Both the position numbers and the translations under genes were made by a program. Shown piece after piece: positions 652 to 37,691 of a stretch of DNA of 64,000 nucleotides; the stretch's first letter is position 1; every line of letters starts with the position of its first letter. The notes under the pieces are model-generated. The model had not been told where the DNA came from and made no database searches. It saw nothing but the letters and a program-made list of their open reading frames with translations. Source of the stretch: a virus (Duplodnaviria; Caudoviricetes); IMG/VR virus record IMGVR_UViG_3300017432_000006, positions 8,857 through 72,856 of that record; one strand, written 5' to 3'.

Positions 652-3600
652 TTAATCACTCTCTTTCTTCCTGTCTTCTTGTCCTTCTCATCAATAGCAC
701 TCCACACGGCTCTCTTGATATCAATTGTATCATTAACCTTGTCATTGAAGTTAAGGTTGAACGTGTAGTTATTGTTCATGTTGCCGCTTTGTAGTTCTCC
801 AATACCTTCCTTCAACCCGCGTGACAGTGGTGCAGTAAGAACAGTTTCGTTCTTGTGCAAGTTGGCTAGTGTGTTGTCGTACTTGATATCTCCACCCACA
901 CGTAGACCAGGAATGTGCTTGTTCGGGTTAACCCATTCTGGTAGACCCAACTGGTAGTGAAGGTGGTTACCTGTAGATGAACCAGTCGTACCTACGTAAC
1001 CAATTCTCTGCCCGCCGGTTACCTGCTGACCTGCTGTAACAAGAGGACGTGAATTCATGTGGGCATAACCAGTCTTTACGTTGTTACCGTGATCGATAAG
1101 TACGTAGTTACCGTAAGAACCGGCCCAACCAGCCTGTGCTACTCTACCTGGCTTGGATGCGTAGATTGGCTTTCCACCGTTAGCAGAGAAGTCCATACCG
1201 TTGTGCAGTTTCATTCTTCCTGTGATCGGGTGCTGACGCATACCGAATGGAGATGACAACTTCTTGTAGTTACTTCTACCACCAAGAGGGTGATTCCAAC
1301 CACCGGCGGCTACGGTAGACTGTGCTCCGGTACCCGTCTCAGGTAAAATCGACAACTTGGAACCATTCAAAATAGCAACGGCTTCATCTTCCCACTTAGC
1401 ATAAGCGTTAGGGAAGCCTGATCTTTGTACGGCCTGGGCAGCGTCCGTCAAGGCCATTGAGTTGCGCCCCTTAACCTTTAGCAGACCCTCGAAGAACTTA
1501 CCCGCTGAGTACTCGGGGTCCATGATTTGTTCGATTGTTCCCCAGCCCTGTGATGTACGCTGCTGGAACAGACCAACTGAGTCACGGTCACCGTAGTTCA
1601 AGTTATTAAGACCTGACTCCTGCATGGCAGTCATAAGACCAATGATGAGGTCTCTCTCGCTAGCACCCATACTACGACCGACGTTCATGATTGTTGCGGC
1701 GTTCTGTAGTTGCGTTGCACTAAAGTTGGTACCACCGTACTTACCTGCGGCAGCCGCTGAGTAACCAGAATCCATTGCGCTCATCGTACCGACGATTTGT
1801 GCAATTCTACCTGCTGCTGATGCAAACACACTTCGGGCTACAGACTTGGCAATTGAGTTGCCAATGGCAGCGGCGATAAAACCTGCTCCCATTCCACCCA
1901 TGTCAGGTCCACCCATAGCATCAGAGCCAGAAAGGTCCATTGGCTGTCCGCCGTTGTTGATAGCATTTAGCAAACCTCTGTTCTTACGGCTAGCCCTTGA
2001 GTTAATGACGTATTCGTCCTTCTTGATGACCGCCATTGTCTCTGATGGGTACAATGATGAACTGCGAGGGACGCCGGTACGATCCTTTTGACTGAATCCC
2101 GGGCTTCCTCCGATGTGGTAAGCATGAAGTCCACCCTCTCGGTTACCAGCAGCACTGGCATCCTTGTAAGCCTTAAGCACGGCTGTTACAGTCGAGTCAA
2201 CTCCCTTATTGGTACCACCTGGGAAGTTACCTGTCTTCAACCATTCAACCAACTGGTCACCAGAAAGGTTGTAGGCGCTACCCATCTCGGTTGCAATGTC
2301 TTGACCGATCTTCTTCCAGTCGATTTCATCTTGTAGTGCCGCAGCAGCAGTCGCTACGTTGGTCTCAAGAGCAGTACCGACATAAGCACCCCACGCATCA
2401 CCCTGCAACTTAAGACCGTTTCCGTATCTCTCGTATGCTTCCTGTACCTTAACAATGTGATCGGCAAGTTCCTCGCGGGTACGTGGTGTAGCAGCCTTAA
2501 GTGTTTCTAGTTGTGCTGCAAGCATTCTTGAGTTGTTATCGAACTCAGCCTGCTTTGACTTAACGCTAGCATCAAGGTCAGCCTTCAACTTGTCTTGGTT
2601 GTTCTGGTGAGACAGAGCATTGTTCTGCTTCTGGTTCTCCAAAGCCTTGAGATTACTGTCCTGACGTGACTTAAGTGCCTTTGCGTCTCCCTGCTGACGA
2701 TCCTTGAGTCTAGTTGCCTCAAGTTCCTGCTGCTTCTTGAGGTTAGCCATAGCGGCTTCCTGCTCAAGATTAAGGTTCTTGATACGGGCTTCCTTCTCAG
2801 CCTCCATCGTCTTGATGCGGATATCTCTTTGCTCTTCCGCCAACTTGGTAGCGGCAGACTTCTGGTCTTCAAGTTTCTTGACCTCACCGGTCATCTTCTC
2901 TCTTAGAGCAGTTGAGGCATCACCAGATACAGCCGCCTGGTCGTCAATACTCCATTGCTGCTGAGTTGCGGCGGCATCGTTTTGAATCTTAGCGGCTTCA
3001 TCCAGGTTACCCCCGGCCAGTGCTGCATTAAAATCGACAGTCTGGTTGAACATTGCGGCAAGACGCTCGATACGACGACGCTCTGCCTCAAAGATTTCCT
3101 GACGACGATCCTCCGCACGCTCTTCGGCTTCGATAGAATCCTGAATCTTCTTAATTCGTGCATCGTAGGCTGCCTCTTGTGCTTCGATCTGACGGTTGAG
3201 TGTGTCTGTTGTCTTCTCAATAGCAGCATCGTACTTGGCTTCCTCGTTCTCGATGCGAGTTTCCCAGGCAGTCTCAGCGTTATCGGCATTGCGCTGCCAC
3301 AGTTCGTTGAAACGCTTTGTCTCGGCTTCCTGACGTGTGTTAAGTGCTTCGTCTTCGGCAGCATGAGTGTCCTGAATTGCGTCGCGCTTTGCGTCGTAAC
3401 GGTCAGCGTCAGCATCAGCACGAGCCTTCATCTTGTCTAGTTCGGCCTCACCGTTTGCACGCATGGCGTCCAGTTGAGCAGTGTTACTTTGTTGTAGTAG
3501 CCTGTCAGCCTCTTCGTAAATGCTGCTCATGGTGCCAGACATTGCAGACTTGAGCGTGTTCGTCAAATCGTCGGCTGTCATAGCCACTTCTTCCATAGCC

Positions 3601-26712: not shown

Positions 26713-26760
26713 AGTTGTATATCCTTTCGTTTCATTTATTGTATCAGAGTGACCTAGAGA

Positions 26761-26797
26761 AACAAATAACCCCCGGCCTAAGCCGGGGGCATTTGTT
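26761..26797 (-). terminator. Intrinsic terminator after the major capsid gene
   Basis: CCCCCGGC/GCCGGGGG stem followed by a U-rich tail. Confidence 0.75.
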
Positions 26798-26814
26798 GGT
26801 TGGTTCGACTAAGA

Positions 26815-33381: not shown

Positions 33382-34506
33382 TTACTTAATAGGCAGTAGC
33401 CACGCTGCATTCCACGTCTGCTCGCCCAAAAGGCCATTGACCTTGAGACCGGCTAGTTTCTGGAAGTAGCGGACGATACGGTCTGTGTCAGGTCCGAATG
33501 AACCATCAACGTCTAGACCGTAACCGCGCTCTACCATCTGACGCTGCCACTTAGCGATACCAGAAGAGTTGTCACCCTTCTTGAAATACCCGCGACCCTT
33601 AGTCCATCTGGCAGAAGCCGGAACTGTGAGCGCAGGCTTTGGTGCTACAGGCTTCGGCTTGTTCGCTTCTGCCTTTGCTGCGGCTGCTGCCTTATCGGCA
33701 CGCCACTTGACCCAACGACCGTAGTGCTGCCACGTCACTCTTTCGACAACACCCGTTACGGGTACTCCTACCTTCTGCTGTACGACCTTTACTGCATCTG
33801 CTGTCTTGGGACCGTAGAAGCCATCAGCCTTGACCCCGGCCCATCCCTGAATTGCAACAACGTCAGGGCCTCCTAGTTGTGGAACAGTAACCTTTAGTTC
33901 ACGCTCTCCAACGCGGTATGTCTTCTCGGGCTTTGCTACAATTCCGCCCTTGCGAAGTGTTGAAGGATGATCAAGGAATCCCTGTACTGTCGAGCGGAAC
34001 TGATTCATGTTGATACCGGCTGGGTCGATCTTACGACCGCGAGGAACACAAATCTCCTTGTGCGCGCCGACTCTGCTGCTGTTGCGTCTGATGTACTTTA
34101 GCACAGCGGCGGTGCCGCGAGCATATGAATCAAGTTGTGCTGCTGTCCAGTCCTTACCGTTACCCACTGATTCGGCTTCTACACCGATGAATGAGCCATT
34201 AAGATTACTGAATCCTGCCCAACTTGAAGTACCGGCGTGGTTGGAACGACCTGCGGCAATAACATACCATGTACCGTCGCGGCCTAGACCTAGTTGTGAC
34301 AACGGACCGGAAAGTCCTGCACGCCCGTTCTTGACTACGTTCAATGATGGGTAGTTACCTGTCTTGGCACCTACCGTGTGGTGAGGGGTGATTCCCTCTA
34401 CTGCGTTCATGCCGCGCGTACCGCGAGTCTTCCAGCCACTAACCTCAACTACCGGATAGCCTGTTTCTCTCAGTGCGTCAGCAAGCCATGTTGCCCAAAC
34501 TGCCAT
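33382..34506 (-). CDS. Endolysin: N-acetylmuramoyl-L-alanine amidase plus peptidoglycan-binding domains
   Basis: HHT..NHAG..IGVEAE..HKE..KIDP Amidase_2 motifs; two DG.(Y/F)GP.T PG-binding-1 repeats. Confidence 0.92.
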   Translation of the reverse strand: MAVWATWLADALRETGYPVVEVSGWKTRGTRGMNAVEGITPHHTVGAKTGNYPSLNVVKNGRAGLSGPLSQLGLGRDGTWYVIAAGRSNHAGTSSWAGFSNLNGSFIGVEAESVGNGKDWTAAQLDSYARGTAAVLKYIRRNSSRVGAHKEICVPRGRKIDPAGINMNQFRSTVQGFLDHPSTLRKGGIVAKPEKTYRVGERELKVTVPQLGGPDVVAIQGWAGVKADGFYGPKTADAVKVVQQKVGVPVTGVVERVTWQHYGRWVKWRADKAAAAAKAEANKPKPVAPKPALTVPASARWTKGRGYFKKGDNSSGIAKWQRQMVERGYGLDVDGSFGPDTDRIVRYFQKLAGLKVNGLLGEQTWNAAWLLPIK

Positions 34507-34757
34507 TAGTCTTCCTCATCCTCCTCAGGGTGGTCGAGTAGATACTGGTCTCTACCGGCATCCCAATTCTCGGCCTCATAATCTTCTACTGTCTTCTCGG
34601 GGTTGTAACTTACTGTGAGTTCCCCGCTCTCAAATAGTTCTTGTAGTTCTGCGTCTGTTGTTGGCTGCGCGCCGTCGAATGCTGCGTCTCGCTTGTCCTC
34701 AAAAGGAGTCTTGCGGAACTTGCTCACGACCTTACCAATGCTGTTTGCGTTGATCAT
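34506..34757 (-). CDS. Small acidic hypothetical protein
   Basis: 83 aa; RBS AAGGAG; no transmembrane segment, so not a holin. Confidence 0.65.
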   Translation of the reverse strand: MINANSIGKVVSKFRKTPFEDKRDAAFDGAQPTTDAELQELFESGELTVSYNPEKTVEDYEAENWDAGRDQYLLDHPEEDEED

Positions 34758-34788: not shown

Positions 34789-34817
34789 AAACCCCCCGAA
34801 CCCAAAGGGCCGGGGGG
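34789..34817 (-). terminator. Terminator after the RNR operon
   Basis: C6/G6 stem followed by UUU on the minus strand. Confidence 0.55.
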
Positions 34818-34829
34818 TAGGTAAGAGTG

Positions 34830-34916
34830 TCAGCCCTCGCAGGCTACACACTCAGGGTTGTCTAGTTTGCACTGAGGAATAACTTCCCAATCATCATCGT
34901 CCCATGAAATATCCAT
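34830..34916 (-). CDS. 28-aa NrdA C-terminal redox-tail peptide (MDISWDDDDWEVIPQCKLDNPECVACEG)
   Basis: In frame with nrdA, two codons after its TGA; own RBS AAGGAG; ends in the C..DNPECVACEG motif typical of class I NrdA tails; absent from the ORF track. Confidence 0.75.
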   Translation of the reverse strand: MDISWDDDDWEVIPQCKLDNPECVACEG

Positions 34917-34919
34917 TTG

Positions 34920-36608
34920 TCAGTTCTCCTTTCTTCTTGCTTTACTGGCTTGCACGCCCGCCTTGGAGCGGAAGTAATATAGTGCCTTGACATAAGGGTC
35001 AAGCATTGCCTGCTTGTGAACATCGCTGATCTTAGCAGGAGATTCCTTGGCATCGAAGAACAGGTTTAGTGACTGCCCCTGATCGATGTACTGCTGTCTG
35101 TCCGAAGCCTGCTGTACGACGTGAACTTGGTCAATCTCGTAAGCAGTCTTGAATACGTCCTTCTCATGACCAGTTAGCCAGTCAACGTCTTGCACAGAAC
35201 CGTTGTTGTCGATGATGTGATCAACAATCTCTGGTGTGTAGACGTTTCTCTCCTTCATGATCTTGAGAAGGGTGGGGTTGACTCTGAAAATCTCCCCCGC
35301 CGCGCTTGACTGGTTCCAAGCGTTAGCAACGATAGGCTCAATGCCCTGCGACACCCCGCCGACGAGCAGCGCGGTTGACATTGTAGGTGCAATTGCCATT
35401 AGGTGCGTGTTGCGCCTGCCGTCAGCCCACTCAGGAGCACCGGCAAGATCGGCCATTGCAGTGCTTGCAATCTCGGCCTCTCTTCTAATGTGATTGAACG
35501 CTTCCTTGTTAAAGATGTAGGCATCCTCAGAATCAAAAGGAATCATGTTGTCCTGTAAGTATGTGTGGTAGCCCATAACACCGAGACCTAGCGCGCGGGA
35601 CTTCTCTGTGAATCGAACCGCGTTCTCTGTTCCCTTAATACCCTTTGCTGCACGGACGAATGCCTCGGCTACACAATCAAGAAACACGGTAGCGTCCTTA
35701 ACGGCAGATGTGTCCTCCCAATCATCGTAGTGAGCCAAGTTCATCGAACTCAGGACACAGGTGAATGAGTGGTCAGCGTCAGAGTGAAGTGTAATCTCTG
35801 AGCACAGGTTACTTGCCTTGACGCTGAGACCGTTCTTGGCATATGACTCAGGGTTGAGTCTATTCACCTTGTCTACGAAGAACATGTATCCTTTACCAGT
35901 AATTGCTCTGGTCTTGAGGATAGCCTTGTAACGACGAACTGCCTCTTGGTCCCCGGCCTTCAACTTATTGATGAAGTCATCGGTGATGTTCCATCCAACG
36001 TTGAGACCATCAGGATTATTGCGAAGGTAGGTCACAATTTCGTCAAAGTCTGCGTGATCTGCTTCGATGTAACCCGCCCATGCTCCTCTACGTGTCGAAC
36101 CCTGAGATGTGTCGTCCATATCCTGAACAAATCCCTTGATGACTGGCATCGGGCCTGCGGCCTTGCCGTTGTCAGAGAACTTTGAACCACGGGGACGGAT
36201 ATCACCAAGGTATGATGACGTTCCGAAACCGTGCTTTGTCAGAACTGCTGACTCTAGACGGCTAGAGTAGAATCCGTAGATAGAATCTACGACATAGTTT
36301 CCTGTACAACTGACAGGAAGTCCACGGGTAGTTCCCAGGTTTGCAAGAACCGGGGTAGAAGGTGAAAGCCAACCCTTCCAGATAAGATCGAAGAAAGTGT
36401 TCTCCCAATCATTCCATCCGTAGAGTTCGGTAGCAATGTCACCGGCTGTCTTGGCGATCTTTTTGTAACGGTCCTTTAGGCTTTGTCCTGGCTCTGCGTA
36501 CTTGAGCATGAACATCTGGTAACCGCCGGTTGTGTACCAACCAGGGACCTCGCCCTTGGCTTGTAATTCCTTTCGCTCATTGGCGAACTTTTCATAGATT
36601 GAAGTCAT
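34920..36608 (-). CDS. nrdA: Ribonucleotide reductase class I alpha subunit (no ATP cone, no C-terminal Cys pair)
   Basis: PVSC, SNLCSEI, AIAPT and LYYFRS motifs. Confidence 0.95.
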   Translation of the reverse strand: MTSIYEKFANERKELQAKGEVPGWYTTGGYQMFMLKYAEPGQSLKDRYKKIAKTAGDIATELYGWNDWENTFFDLIWKGWLSPSTPVLANLGTTRGLPVSCTGNYVVDSIYGFYSSRLESAVLTKHGFGTSSYLGDIRPRGSKFSDNGKAAGPMPVIKGFVQDMDDTSQGSTRRGAWAGYIEADHADFDEIVTYLRNNPDGLNVGWNITDDFINKLKAGDQEAVRRYKAILKTRAITGKGYMFFVDKVNRLNPESYAKNGLSVKASNLCSEITLHSDADHSFTCVLSSMNLAHYDDWEDTSAVKDATVFLDCVAEAFVRAAKGIKGTENAVRFTEKSRALGLGVMGYHTYLQDNMIPFDSEDAYIFNKEAFNHIRREAEIASTAMADLAGAPEWADGRRNTHLMAIAPTMSTALLVGGVSQGIEPIVANAWNQSSAAGEIFRVNPTLLKIMKERNVYTPEIVDHIIDNNGSVQDVDWLTGHEKDVFKTAYEIDQVHVVQQASDRQQYIDQGQSLNLFFDAKESPAKISDVHKQAMLDPYVKALYYFRSKAGVQASKARRKEN

Positions 36609-36714
36609 GTTCGTGGTCTACCTCCGTCAACGTCTTGTATGAAATGATGTACTCGCCCGCGCACACGAGGCAAGTTGCATTCTTGTCTGTGATCAACCAA
36701 TTGCCAATACCCAT
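36592..36714 (-). CDS. 40-aa hypothetical protein with CxxC/HxH
   Basis: TGATG coupling to nrdB; MGIGNWLITDKNATCLVCAGEY...DHEHDFNL. Confidence 0.45.
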   Translation of the reverse strand: MGIGNWLITDKNATCLVCAGEYIISYKTLTEVDHEHDFNL

Positions 36715-37691
36715 CAGAAATCAAACCCATCTTCATCGAAGTTTCTGTTGTACTCGTTCTGAGTACCGTTGAAGAAGTCACCGAACTGCTGTGCGTTGAT
36801 TCCTCGGTAGAACCACTCAGCAATAGGGTTATCGCCAATTTCGTAGCGAGGCTTGAAATCAAGGTACTCGTAGCACAGGTTAAGACGTGACTTGACGAAA
36901 GTAGTCAACTGATCGAAGTCGATACCCTCGATTTCACCCTTCTCGAAGATCATCTCAATGATGCGGGTTTCGTGCTCTAGGATGTGGTCTGCTGCCTCAT
37001 CGATTCTTGTCTTAAGGGCATCTAGTCTTCCCTGGCCCGCGCCTTCCTCGTCTCTCAACTGACGGAAAAGCCATGCTCCTAGTTCGTGGTGAAGGGACTC
37101 GTCTCTAACACTAAAGTTGATTCCTCTTACCACGGTGTTGAGCAGGTTCTTACCGCCGGACTGGAAGTGCTTGAGGAATGCGAATGACGAATACAGAACC
37201 GCGCCCTCTAGCATGGAGAACACAGCAATGGCAAAGAGAAGGTCGTCGTCTTCTGCTGCGTCCTCCACGAACTGCATACGTGCTGCCAGAGTCTCATCAT
37301 TCTTGTAAGAATTAAAGAACTCGTCATTGGCTAGCAGCATCGCCTCATTGATCTTGTTGTAGAAAGGTGCGTGTACTGCCAGTTCGATAGCATTGATCAA
37401 AGCACCAGCCTGCTGAATCTCAGGACGAGGGAATGCCTTGACCACTCGGTCTCCCCAATAACTTGATCCTACTTCTAGTTCGTACAACACGAAAAGTTTA
37501 AGTACGACTACAACCGCCTCATACTCTGCGGGAGTCATGTTTGCTCTGAGGTCTTGAATGTCTTTCTCTACGTTAATCTCTTCCGGTGTCCAGAAGATGC
37601 TTCTCTGCTGCTCGATCTTCTCAAGCACGAACGGGTAATCGAATGTATACGTTGACTTGGGGGTTCTGATCTGTGGTAGTGTGTCCGTCAT
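36714..37691 (-). CDS. nrdB: Ribonucleotide reductase class I beta subunit
   Basis: FWTPEEI, ELAVHAPFY, LEGAVLYSSF and RDESLH diiron motifs. Confidence 0.95.
   Translation of the reverse strand: MTDTLPQIRTPKSTYTFDYPFVLEKIEQQRSIFWTPEEINVEKDIQDLRANMTPAEYEAVVVVLKLFVLYELEVGSSYWGDRVVKAFPRPEIQQAGALINAIELAVHAPFYNKINEAMLLANDEFFNSYKNDETLAARMQFVEDAAEDDDLLFAIAVFSMLEGAVLYSSFAFLKHFQSGGKNLLNTVVRGINFSVRDESLHHELGAWLFRQLRDEEGAGQGRLDALKTRIDEAADHILEHETRIIEMIFEKGEIEGIDFDQLTTFVKSRLNLCYEYLDFKPRYEIGDNPIAEWFYRGINAQQFGDFFNGTQNEYNRNFDEDGFDF

Follow-up and report, generated by a model that had tools for sequence, protein, structure and literature searches.

Class I ribonucleotide reductases (RNRs) require for multiple turnover a redox tail on the catalytic alpha subunit, a disordered element that is invisible in most structures and hard to study. 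In the canonical enzymes this flexible element reaches into the active site to reduce the disulfide there, and thioredoxin then re-reduces it (PMC11903788). The largest published survey of RNR termini describes a disordered class I C-terminus with a CXXC consensus, and mentions split forms for class II only. In the split class II enzyme NrdJa/NrdJb, which is B12-dependent, the folded, multi-domain NrdJb (Burnim et al. 2022, PMC9669993) provides thiol-disulfide exchange (Crona et al. 2015, PMC4520616). Our searches of the literature for class I enzymes with a split tail returned only this pair and the core split of the phage Aeh1 enzyme, and we could not find a detached tail peptide described for a class I RNR. 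The DNA analyzed here, referred to as the window, is a stretch of 64,000 nt (positions 8,857-72,856) from IMG/VR record IMGVR_UViG_3300017432_000006 (Caudoviricetes), a 72.8-kb phage contig that is approximately 55% complete. It carries a class Id nrdB-nrdA pair followed directly by a 28-codon gene, P0001, whose product ends in the cysteine motif that is absent from the alpha subunit. The split of this class Id RNR, with its tail on a micro-peptide, is a real and conserved feature. Judging from sequence comparison and from analogy with known enzymes, we consider it probable that the peptide acts in trans as a separately translated redox tail, and very likely that it is at least a separately translated, functional product.

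A class Id RNR without its redox tail

The window nrdA gene (34920..36608, minus strand) encodes a catalytic alpha subunit of 562 aa, in which the Pfam scan shows PF02867 (E=1.1e-79) and PF00317 only, with no ATP-cone. The radical-generating beta subunit NrdB (325 aa; 36714..37691, minus strand; PF00268, E=7.7e-43) is of the class Id type and has an acidic and aromatic C-terminus. Among solved structures, alpha is closest to the class Id catalytic subunits 6DQW (E=1.8e-116) and 6DQX (E=1.2e-110), and beta to the class Id betas 9DWS, 8DQ3, 6SF4/5OLK, and 6CWO (E=1e-22 to 1e-26). These matches place the enzyme in class Id, an assignment by sequence from which the Mn2(IV/III) cofactor of this subclass cannot be read. 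Alpha lacks a C-terminal cysteine pair; the C-x-x-C resides instead on the separate 28-aa peptide. The thiyl cysteine in its N-x-C-x-E motif, the redox cysteine pair of the barrel, and the two tyrosines of radical transfer are all present: C101, C269, E271, C284, and Y544/Y545 occupy invariant columns in alignments of 42-43 sequences, and AlphaFold2 (AF2) models the alpha body with a predicted local distance difference test score (pLDDT) of approximately 90. With its catalytic columns invariant and its body confidently modeled, the enzyme looks fully functional apart from the redox tail missing from alpha.

The boundary between the two genes is compact. The alpha reading frame ends with KARRKEN and a TGA stop (34922-34920), followed by a single CAA codon (34919-34917) and the ATG of P0001 (34916-34914) in the same frame, all on the minus strand. 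P0001 (34830..34916, minus strand) comprises 28 codons and a TGA stop at 34832-34830. Its Shine-Dalgarno sequence, AAGGAG (34926..34931, minus strand), lies exactly 9 nt 5' of the ATG, within the last codons of nrdA. A preliminary description of this junction, which had pointed out the cysteine-less end of nrdA, the in-frame 28-aa open reading frame (ORF), and its dedicated ribosome-binding site, proved correct in every detail, and the ribosome-binding site is conserved in relatives.

Homology of the peptide to fused tails

The P0001 peptide has an acidic N-terminal half containing two tryptophans, a third cysteine, and the terminal sequence C-V-A-C-E-G, which conforms to the canonical C-x-x-C-E-G. 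Members of its family are 27-45 residues long. In common, the 25 unique sequences have an acidic stretch with two aromatic positions (mostly Trp), a cysteine, the tripeptide E-N-G, and C-x-A-C-E-G at the end. The nearest fused relatives are alphas of Vibrio and Pseudomonas phages (55-59% identity), in which a conserved Q-A-S-K-G leads directly into a seven-residue end identical to that of the peptide; the acidic two-aromatic stretch is missing from the short fused tails of this nearest outgroup. The alpha of Bordetella phage CN1 is fused, has a longer tail, and carries the same three-cysteine spacing as the peptide, indicating that the third cysteine is a normal tail variant.

A profile built from four peptides and searched against 1.84 billion proteins (cut-off E<=1e-3) recovered 13 cluster representatives, all of 29-81 aa and each matched at its own C-terminus. 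In every contig fetched from this search the peptide match stands directly after a tail-less class Id nrdA, in surroundings that are either phage-like (lysin, HNH, glycosyltransferase) or bacterial and high-GC (MetE, SodA, 4HBT). One peptide cluster also contained a 374-aa protein (P0020), which is unrelated and was set aside as a clustering artifact. A tblastn search of the phage collection with the 28-aa peptide produced weak matches only (E>=0.4), the informative ones being the C-termini of fused Bordetella phage alphas. Scans of the tail peptides against Pfam, PHROG, and NCBIfam found no matching model, and public databases call the peptide a "hypothetical protein". The seven-residue identity to fused tails and the outcome of the profile search are far beyond chance, and on these comparisons we identify the peptide as the detached redox tail of alpha. 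In AF2 models of a read-through fusion (two runs, the second with ten in-frame fusions as alignment rows), the alpha body folded well and the peptide was predicted to be disordered, with no folded domain.

Distribution and origin of the split

The same arrangement is found well outside the window, and a homologous peptide follows every tail-less nrdA of the split clade. The split is present at 60-73% identity in five Rhodococcus phages (NiceHouse, Trina, Weasels2, Grayson, and Peregrin), as it is in the phage-like metagenome contigs L012, L080, L169, L170, and L172 and the high-GC contigs L166-L168, L173, and L175. When one genome per species was scanned, all 30 of 30 actinobacterial genome matches had it; these are mostly Nocardioides spp., together with Marmoricola, Phycicoccus, Segeticoccus, an unclassified Actinomycetes metagenome-assembled genome (MAG), and a Nanopelagicales MAG. 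Four more distant genome matches are fused. Nearly all of the more distant homologs (150 viral and metagenome loci) terminate in C-x-x-C plus one to three residues, and each of these approximately 150 is fused or falls in a separate tail-less clade. The relatives are therefore not all fused, an outcome that the preliminary description had left open, and the split clade includes phages, contigs, and 30 genomes.

The split NrdA sequences all fall into a single clade (IQ-TREE support 100/100 with 8 rows; FastTree Shimodaira-Hasegawa-like support 1.0 with 18 sequences), every nearest outgroup of which is fused. The bacterial split sequences are nested within it as sister to the Weaselvirus phages. 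The ratio of nonsynonymous to synonymous differences (pN/pS) in the peptide gene is 0.06-0.31 in close pairs. By sequence phylogeny, a single event produced the split, which actinophages and Nocardioides-type chromosomes have retained ever since. That RNRs of actinophages and of Nocardioides fall together in this clade points to an exchange of genes between phages and host lineages.

Several observations concern individual loci. The NrdA of Grayson is almost identical to that of Weasels2, while its peptide protein is identical to that of Peregrin and strongly unlike that of Weasels2 (pS ~0.7), a pattern suggestive of recombination with a breakpoint between nrdA and the peptide gene in this group (L003, L004, L005); the peptide gene may be a travelling module. 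In Trina (L002, NC_042040.1, locus 3200-3286), the annotation of gp060 (record 26723-26812) uses the wrong frame; the conserved peptide ORF is record 26719-26805, with a start 4 nt before that of annotated gp060. The peptide ORF of Weasels2 (L003, NC_041887.1, locus 3196-3288) is unannotated. In one bacterial lineage (L175/L176:3471-4064) a superoxide dismutase gene lies near the split class Id operon; class Id cofactor assembly has been reported to use superoxide.

Junctions and alternative explanations

Across the clade, the peptide is preceded by any of the three stop codons (TAA, TAG, or TGA) or by TAA TAA in tandem. In most lineages the distance from stop to start is -1, 0, 1, 3, 4, 22, or 23 nt; a few high-GC contigs have a longer gap, which in L173 measures ~90 nt when counted to the called start. 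NiceHouse and L012 have TAA, 3 nt, and ATG in frame 0; in Weasels2, TAA is followed directly by ATG, also in frame 0; in Grayson and Peregrin the codons overlap as TAATG in frame -1; and Trina has tandem TAA TAA and a 22-nt spacer with its own AAGGAG, in frame +1. The peptide is also in frame in L170, L172, L166, L168, and six Nocardioides-type genomes, and lies in frame +1 in L169 and frame +2 in L175. The 30 bacterial genomes are distributed 6/10/14 over frames 0/+1/+2, behind TGA, TAG, or TAA. The closest relative of the window, L080 (83% identity), has TAA and 4 nt (TTTT) before a peptide in frame +1, a case to be weighted accordingly, as L080 is a 2.4-kb low-quality metagenome contig with an in-frame stop within nrdA at a conserved Glu (L080:907-909), which probably reflects misassembly or a defective variant. 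An AAGGAG lies 7-10 nt 5' of the peptide ATG in all five Rhodococcus phages, L012, and L080, and every low-GC phage-type junction examined has a Shine-Dalgarno sequence of its own, that of Trina lying outside nrdA. This is the feature expected of a translationally coupled small gene, namely its own Shine-Dalgarno sequence and a start near or overlapping the upstream stop, kept in relatives.

Two unusual junctions were also seen. The high-GC bacterial-type loci L173:2930-2985 and L167:3515-3570 have long spacers from the nrdA stop to the conserved Met of the peptide, and share an element of approximately 45 nt that includes a near-palindrome (ATCTA-G-TAGAT in L173) and does not recur in the other parts of the loci checked; it could serve as a regulatory site or form an RNA structure. 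The phage-like NrdA of L172 (L172:2930-2994) has approximately 19 extra residues before its Shine-Dalgarno-coding end, with an N-T-K motif repeated, and this looks like a local duplication at the junction.

The preliminary description had proposed a peptide supplied in trans, UGA readthrough, or both, and had called for a comparison of split and frame in related phages; that comparison bears out the split in the five Rhodococcus phages and the free peptide, while the frame is not kept (0, +1, and -1 among these phages) and readthrough loses its basis. If readthrough at UGA-C were programmed, a full-length alpha with an attached tail would be the active species and the free peptide would be irrelevant or secondary. 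The window itself would suit such a mechanism, as its peptide ORF is in the nrdA frame with one sense codon between stop and start, in E. coli a C after UGA makes the stop comparatively leaky, and the relatives in frame 0 listed above could be added to the case. However, even the closest relative is out of frame (with the reservation given for L080), as are Trina, behind two stops in tandem, Grayson, Peregrin, L169, and L175; the bacterial genomes spread over all three frames; many of the in-frame cases use TAA; and the dedicated Shine-Dalgarno sequence and ATG are conserved throughout. A conserved in-frame ORF behind a leaky stop, as expected of programmed readthrough, is not seen in the clade. 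Since frames, stops, and spacers vary while the Shine-Dalgarno sequence and start are conserved, readthrough cannot be what selection preserves, and we regard it as a very unlikely explanation. A trace of readthrough may occur in the window phage alone, and the in-frame layout there is most plausibly incidental or left over from the event that created the split. One ancient split, purifying selection, a Shine-Dalgarno sequence and start of its own, and an arbitrary frame and stop codon therefore argue for a separately initiated peptide rather than for readthrough.

It is conceivable that the separately made peptide is a regulator rather than a tail, either an inhibitor mimicking the NrdB tail at the beta-binding cleft of alpha or a factor that helps the class Id beta to assemble its metal or cofactor. 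Peptides modeled on the beta tail are a classical type of RNR inhibitor, the family conserves three cysteines and not two, and the N-terminal half of the peptide is similar in composition to the cognate NrdB C-termini of the same phages (acidic around paired aromatics). We treat this last resemblance as a lead only; it is compositional and without alignable homology. Against a regulator, it is exactly the alphas of this clade that lost the cysteine pair while the peptide bears the terminal motif of fused tails, and the third cysteine is accounted for by the fused CN1 tail, so that we give such a role little credence. An artifact of sequencing or assembly, or a recent nonsense mutation leaving the remnant of a dying gene, might be suspected from the incompleteness of the window record and from the obvious internal nrdA stop of the related contig L080. 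The split nevertheless recurs in independently sequenced isolate phages and in approximately 30 bacterial genomes, with varied stops, frames, and spacers, and with intact ORFs, a conserved Shine-Dalgarno sequence, and purifying selection. These comparative sequence data effectively refute artifact or decay, which we hold to be exceedingly improbable, and they bear out the view taken in the preliminary description, here from a monophyletic split clade, purifying selection, and a conserved Shine-Dalgarno sequence and start, that neither a nonsense mutation nor a sequencing error is involved.

Some observations weigh against a separately translated redox tail. Both AF2 fusion models leave residues ~552-592 at a pLDDT below 50 and predict no docking site, although such low scores are also what a flexible tail would give in a model of this kind. 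The low-GC junctions (window, NiceHouse, L012, Weasels2, L170, and L172) are in frame 0 above chance, an excess for which shared ancestry can account. No thioredoxin or glutaredoxin gene was found in the 72.8-kb record of the window, itself only partly complete; a thioredoxin-like ORF is present in 5/5 complete phage relatives and a glutaredoxin gene in 0/5. Finally, a separate monophyletic clade of class Id alphas (L094, L095, L102, L109, L114, L115, L126, L129, L132-L134, L140, L142, and L153) has a Lys/Glu-rich end without the cysteine pair, often with a terminator next, and no small ORF ending in a cysteine pair lies within approximately 1.5 kb of these alphas. Some class Id enzymes may thus manage without any tail, and the assumption that the tail is indispensable is weakened by this clade.

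Gene layout of the window locus

Downstream of the peptide gene, a terminator-like G+C hairpin followed by T-rich sequence (~34793-34826, minus strand), seen in the sequence and supported by a scan match at 34809-34793, is likely the end of the nrdB-nrdA-peptide operon. L080, Trina, and the Weaselvirus phages have similar hairpins 3' of their peptide genes. Downstream of the hairpin lies an 83-aa ORF without a family match (34506-34757), which is not a redoxin according to Pfam and PHROG scans, and an endolysin gene is next. Farther upstream, the window has a gap of approximately 105 nt between nrdB and nrdA (36609-36713), where the stop and start codons overlap in the Rhodococcus phage relatives; a weak promoter-like site was flagged within this gap (36707-36679, minus strand).

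Proposed mechanism and its implications

In the model that we propose, the operon nrdB-nrdA-tail peptide would encode a class Id RNR in which the flexible redox tail of alpha is a separate 28-residue peptide. Ribosomes ending nrdA at UGA, or fresh ribosomes, would start at the AUG 3 nt downstream by means of AAGGAG, and the synthesis of alpha and peptide would presumably be roughly coupled. After each turnover, the terminal Cys-x-x-Cys of the peptide would reduce the active-site disulfide C101-C284, a role that we infer from homology and from the class I mechanism, and thioredoxin would then re-reduce the peptide as it does the attached tail of other class I enzymes. More speculatively, the acidic two-aromatic N-terminal half could replace the covalent tether by docking on alpha or on thioredoxin. 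Yeast Rnr1 tails are said to act across the dimer. In the class Ib RNR of B. subtilis, thioredoxin docks on an aromatic patch of alpha beside the tail (PMC11903788), and by analogy the aromatic motif of the peptide might bind thioredoxin rather than alpha. On balance we lean toward an extended form of this model, in which the peptide is a previously unrecognized third subunit of the class Id RNR: a diffusible dithiol peptide of 27-45 residues that would ferry electrons, unattached to the enzyme, between thioredoxin and the active site, with the two-Trp acidic motif as its docking handle, conserved from actinophages to Nocardioides chromosomes and perhaps exchangeable between phage and host.

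A natural free tail of approximately 3 kDa would permit direct add-back to the enzyme, including titration, Cys and Trp variants, and labelled peptides that report on the route of the tail to the active site and to its reductant. Alphas recorded in surveys as lacking C-terminal cysteines may simply have an unannotated partner ORF; many ORFs of this kind are shorter than the usual length limits of gene calling.

Comparison with known systems

Like the class Id enzymes NrdAi/NrdBi of Flavobacterium johnsoniae (6DQW/6CWO) and Actinobacillus ureae (6DQX), the window enzyme has a minimal alpha of approximately 560 aa without an ATP-cone and a beta-then-alpha gene order, but the alphas of the split clade lack the C-x-x-C that these and other fused class Id relatives carry. 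The peptide has the same terminal motif, and presumably the same chemistry, as the canonical class I tail (C754/C759 of E. coli NrdA; C695/C698 of B. subtilis NrdE, PMC11903788). Unlike that tail, it is unattached and possesses an extra conserved acidic two-aromatic stretch. Aeromonas phage Aeh1 also makes a class I alpha in two pieces, NrdA-a and NrdA-b, that must reassemble; there a homing endonuclease gene caused the split, which falls within the catalytic core (PMC3045599). The window enzyme differs in that the tail alone is separated, no mobile element is present at the junction, and the split is old and widespread. By analogy, the closest precedent for a redox tail working as a separate polypeptide is the split class II enzyme NrdJa/NrdJb of Pseudomonas aeruginosa, in which the barrel and the redox cysteines are likewise carried on two separately translated polypeptides encoded by adjacent genes. 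In contrast to that B12-dependent enzyme, the window RNR is a class Id enzyme with an NrdB partner, and its detached piece is a peptide of 27-45 residues in the family as a whole that is predicted to be disordered.

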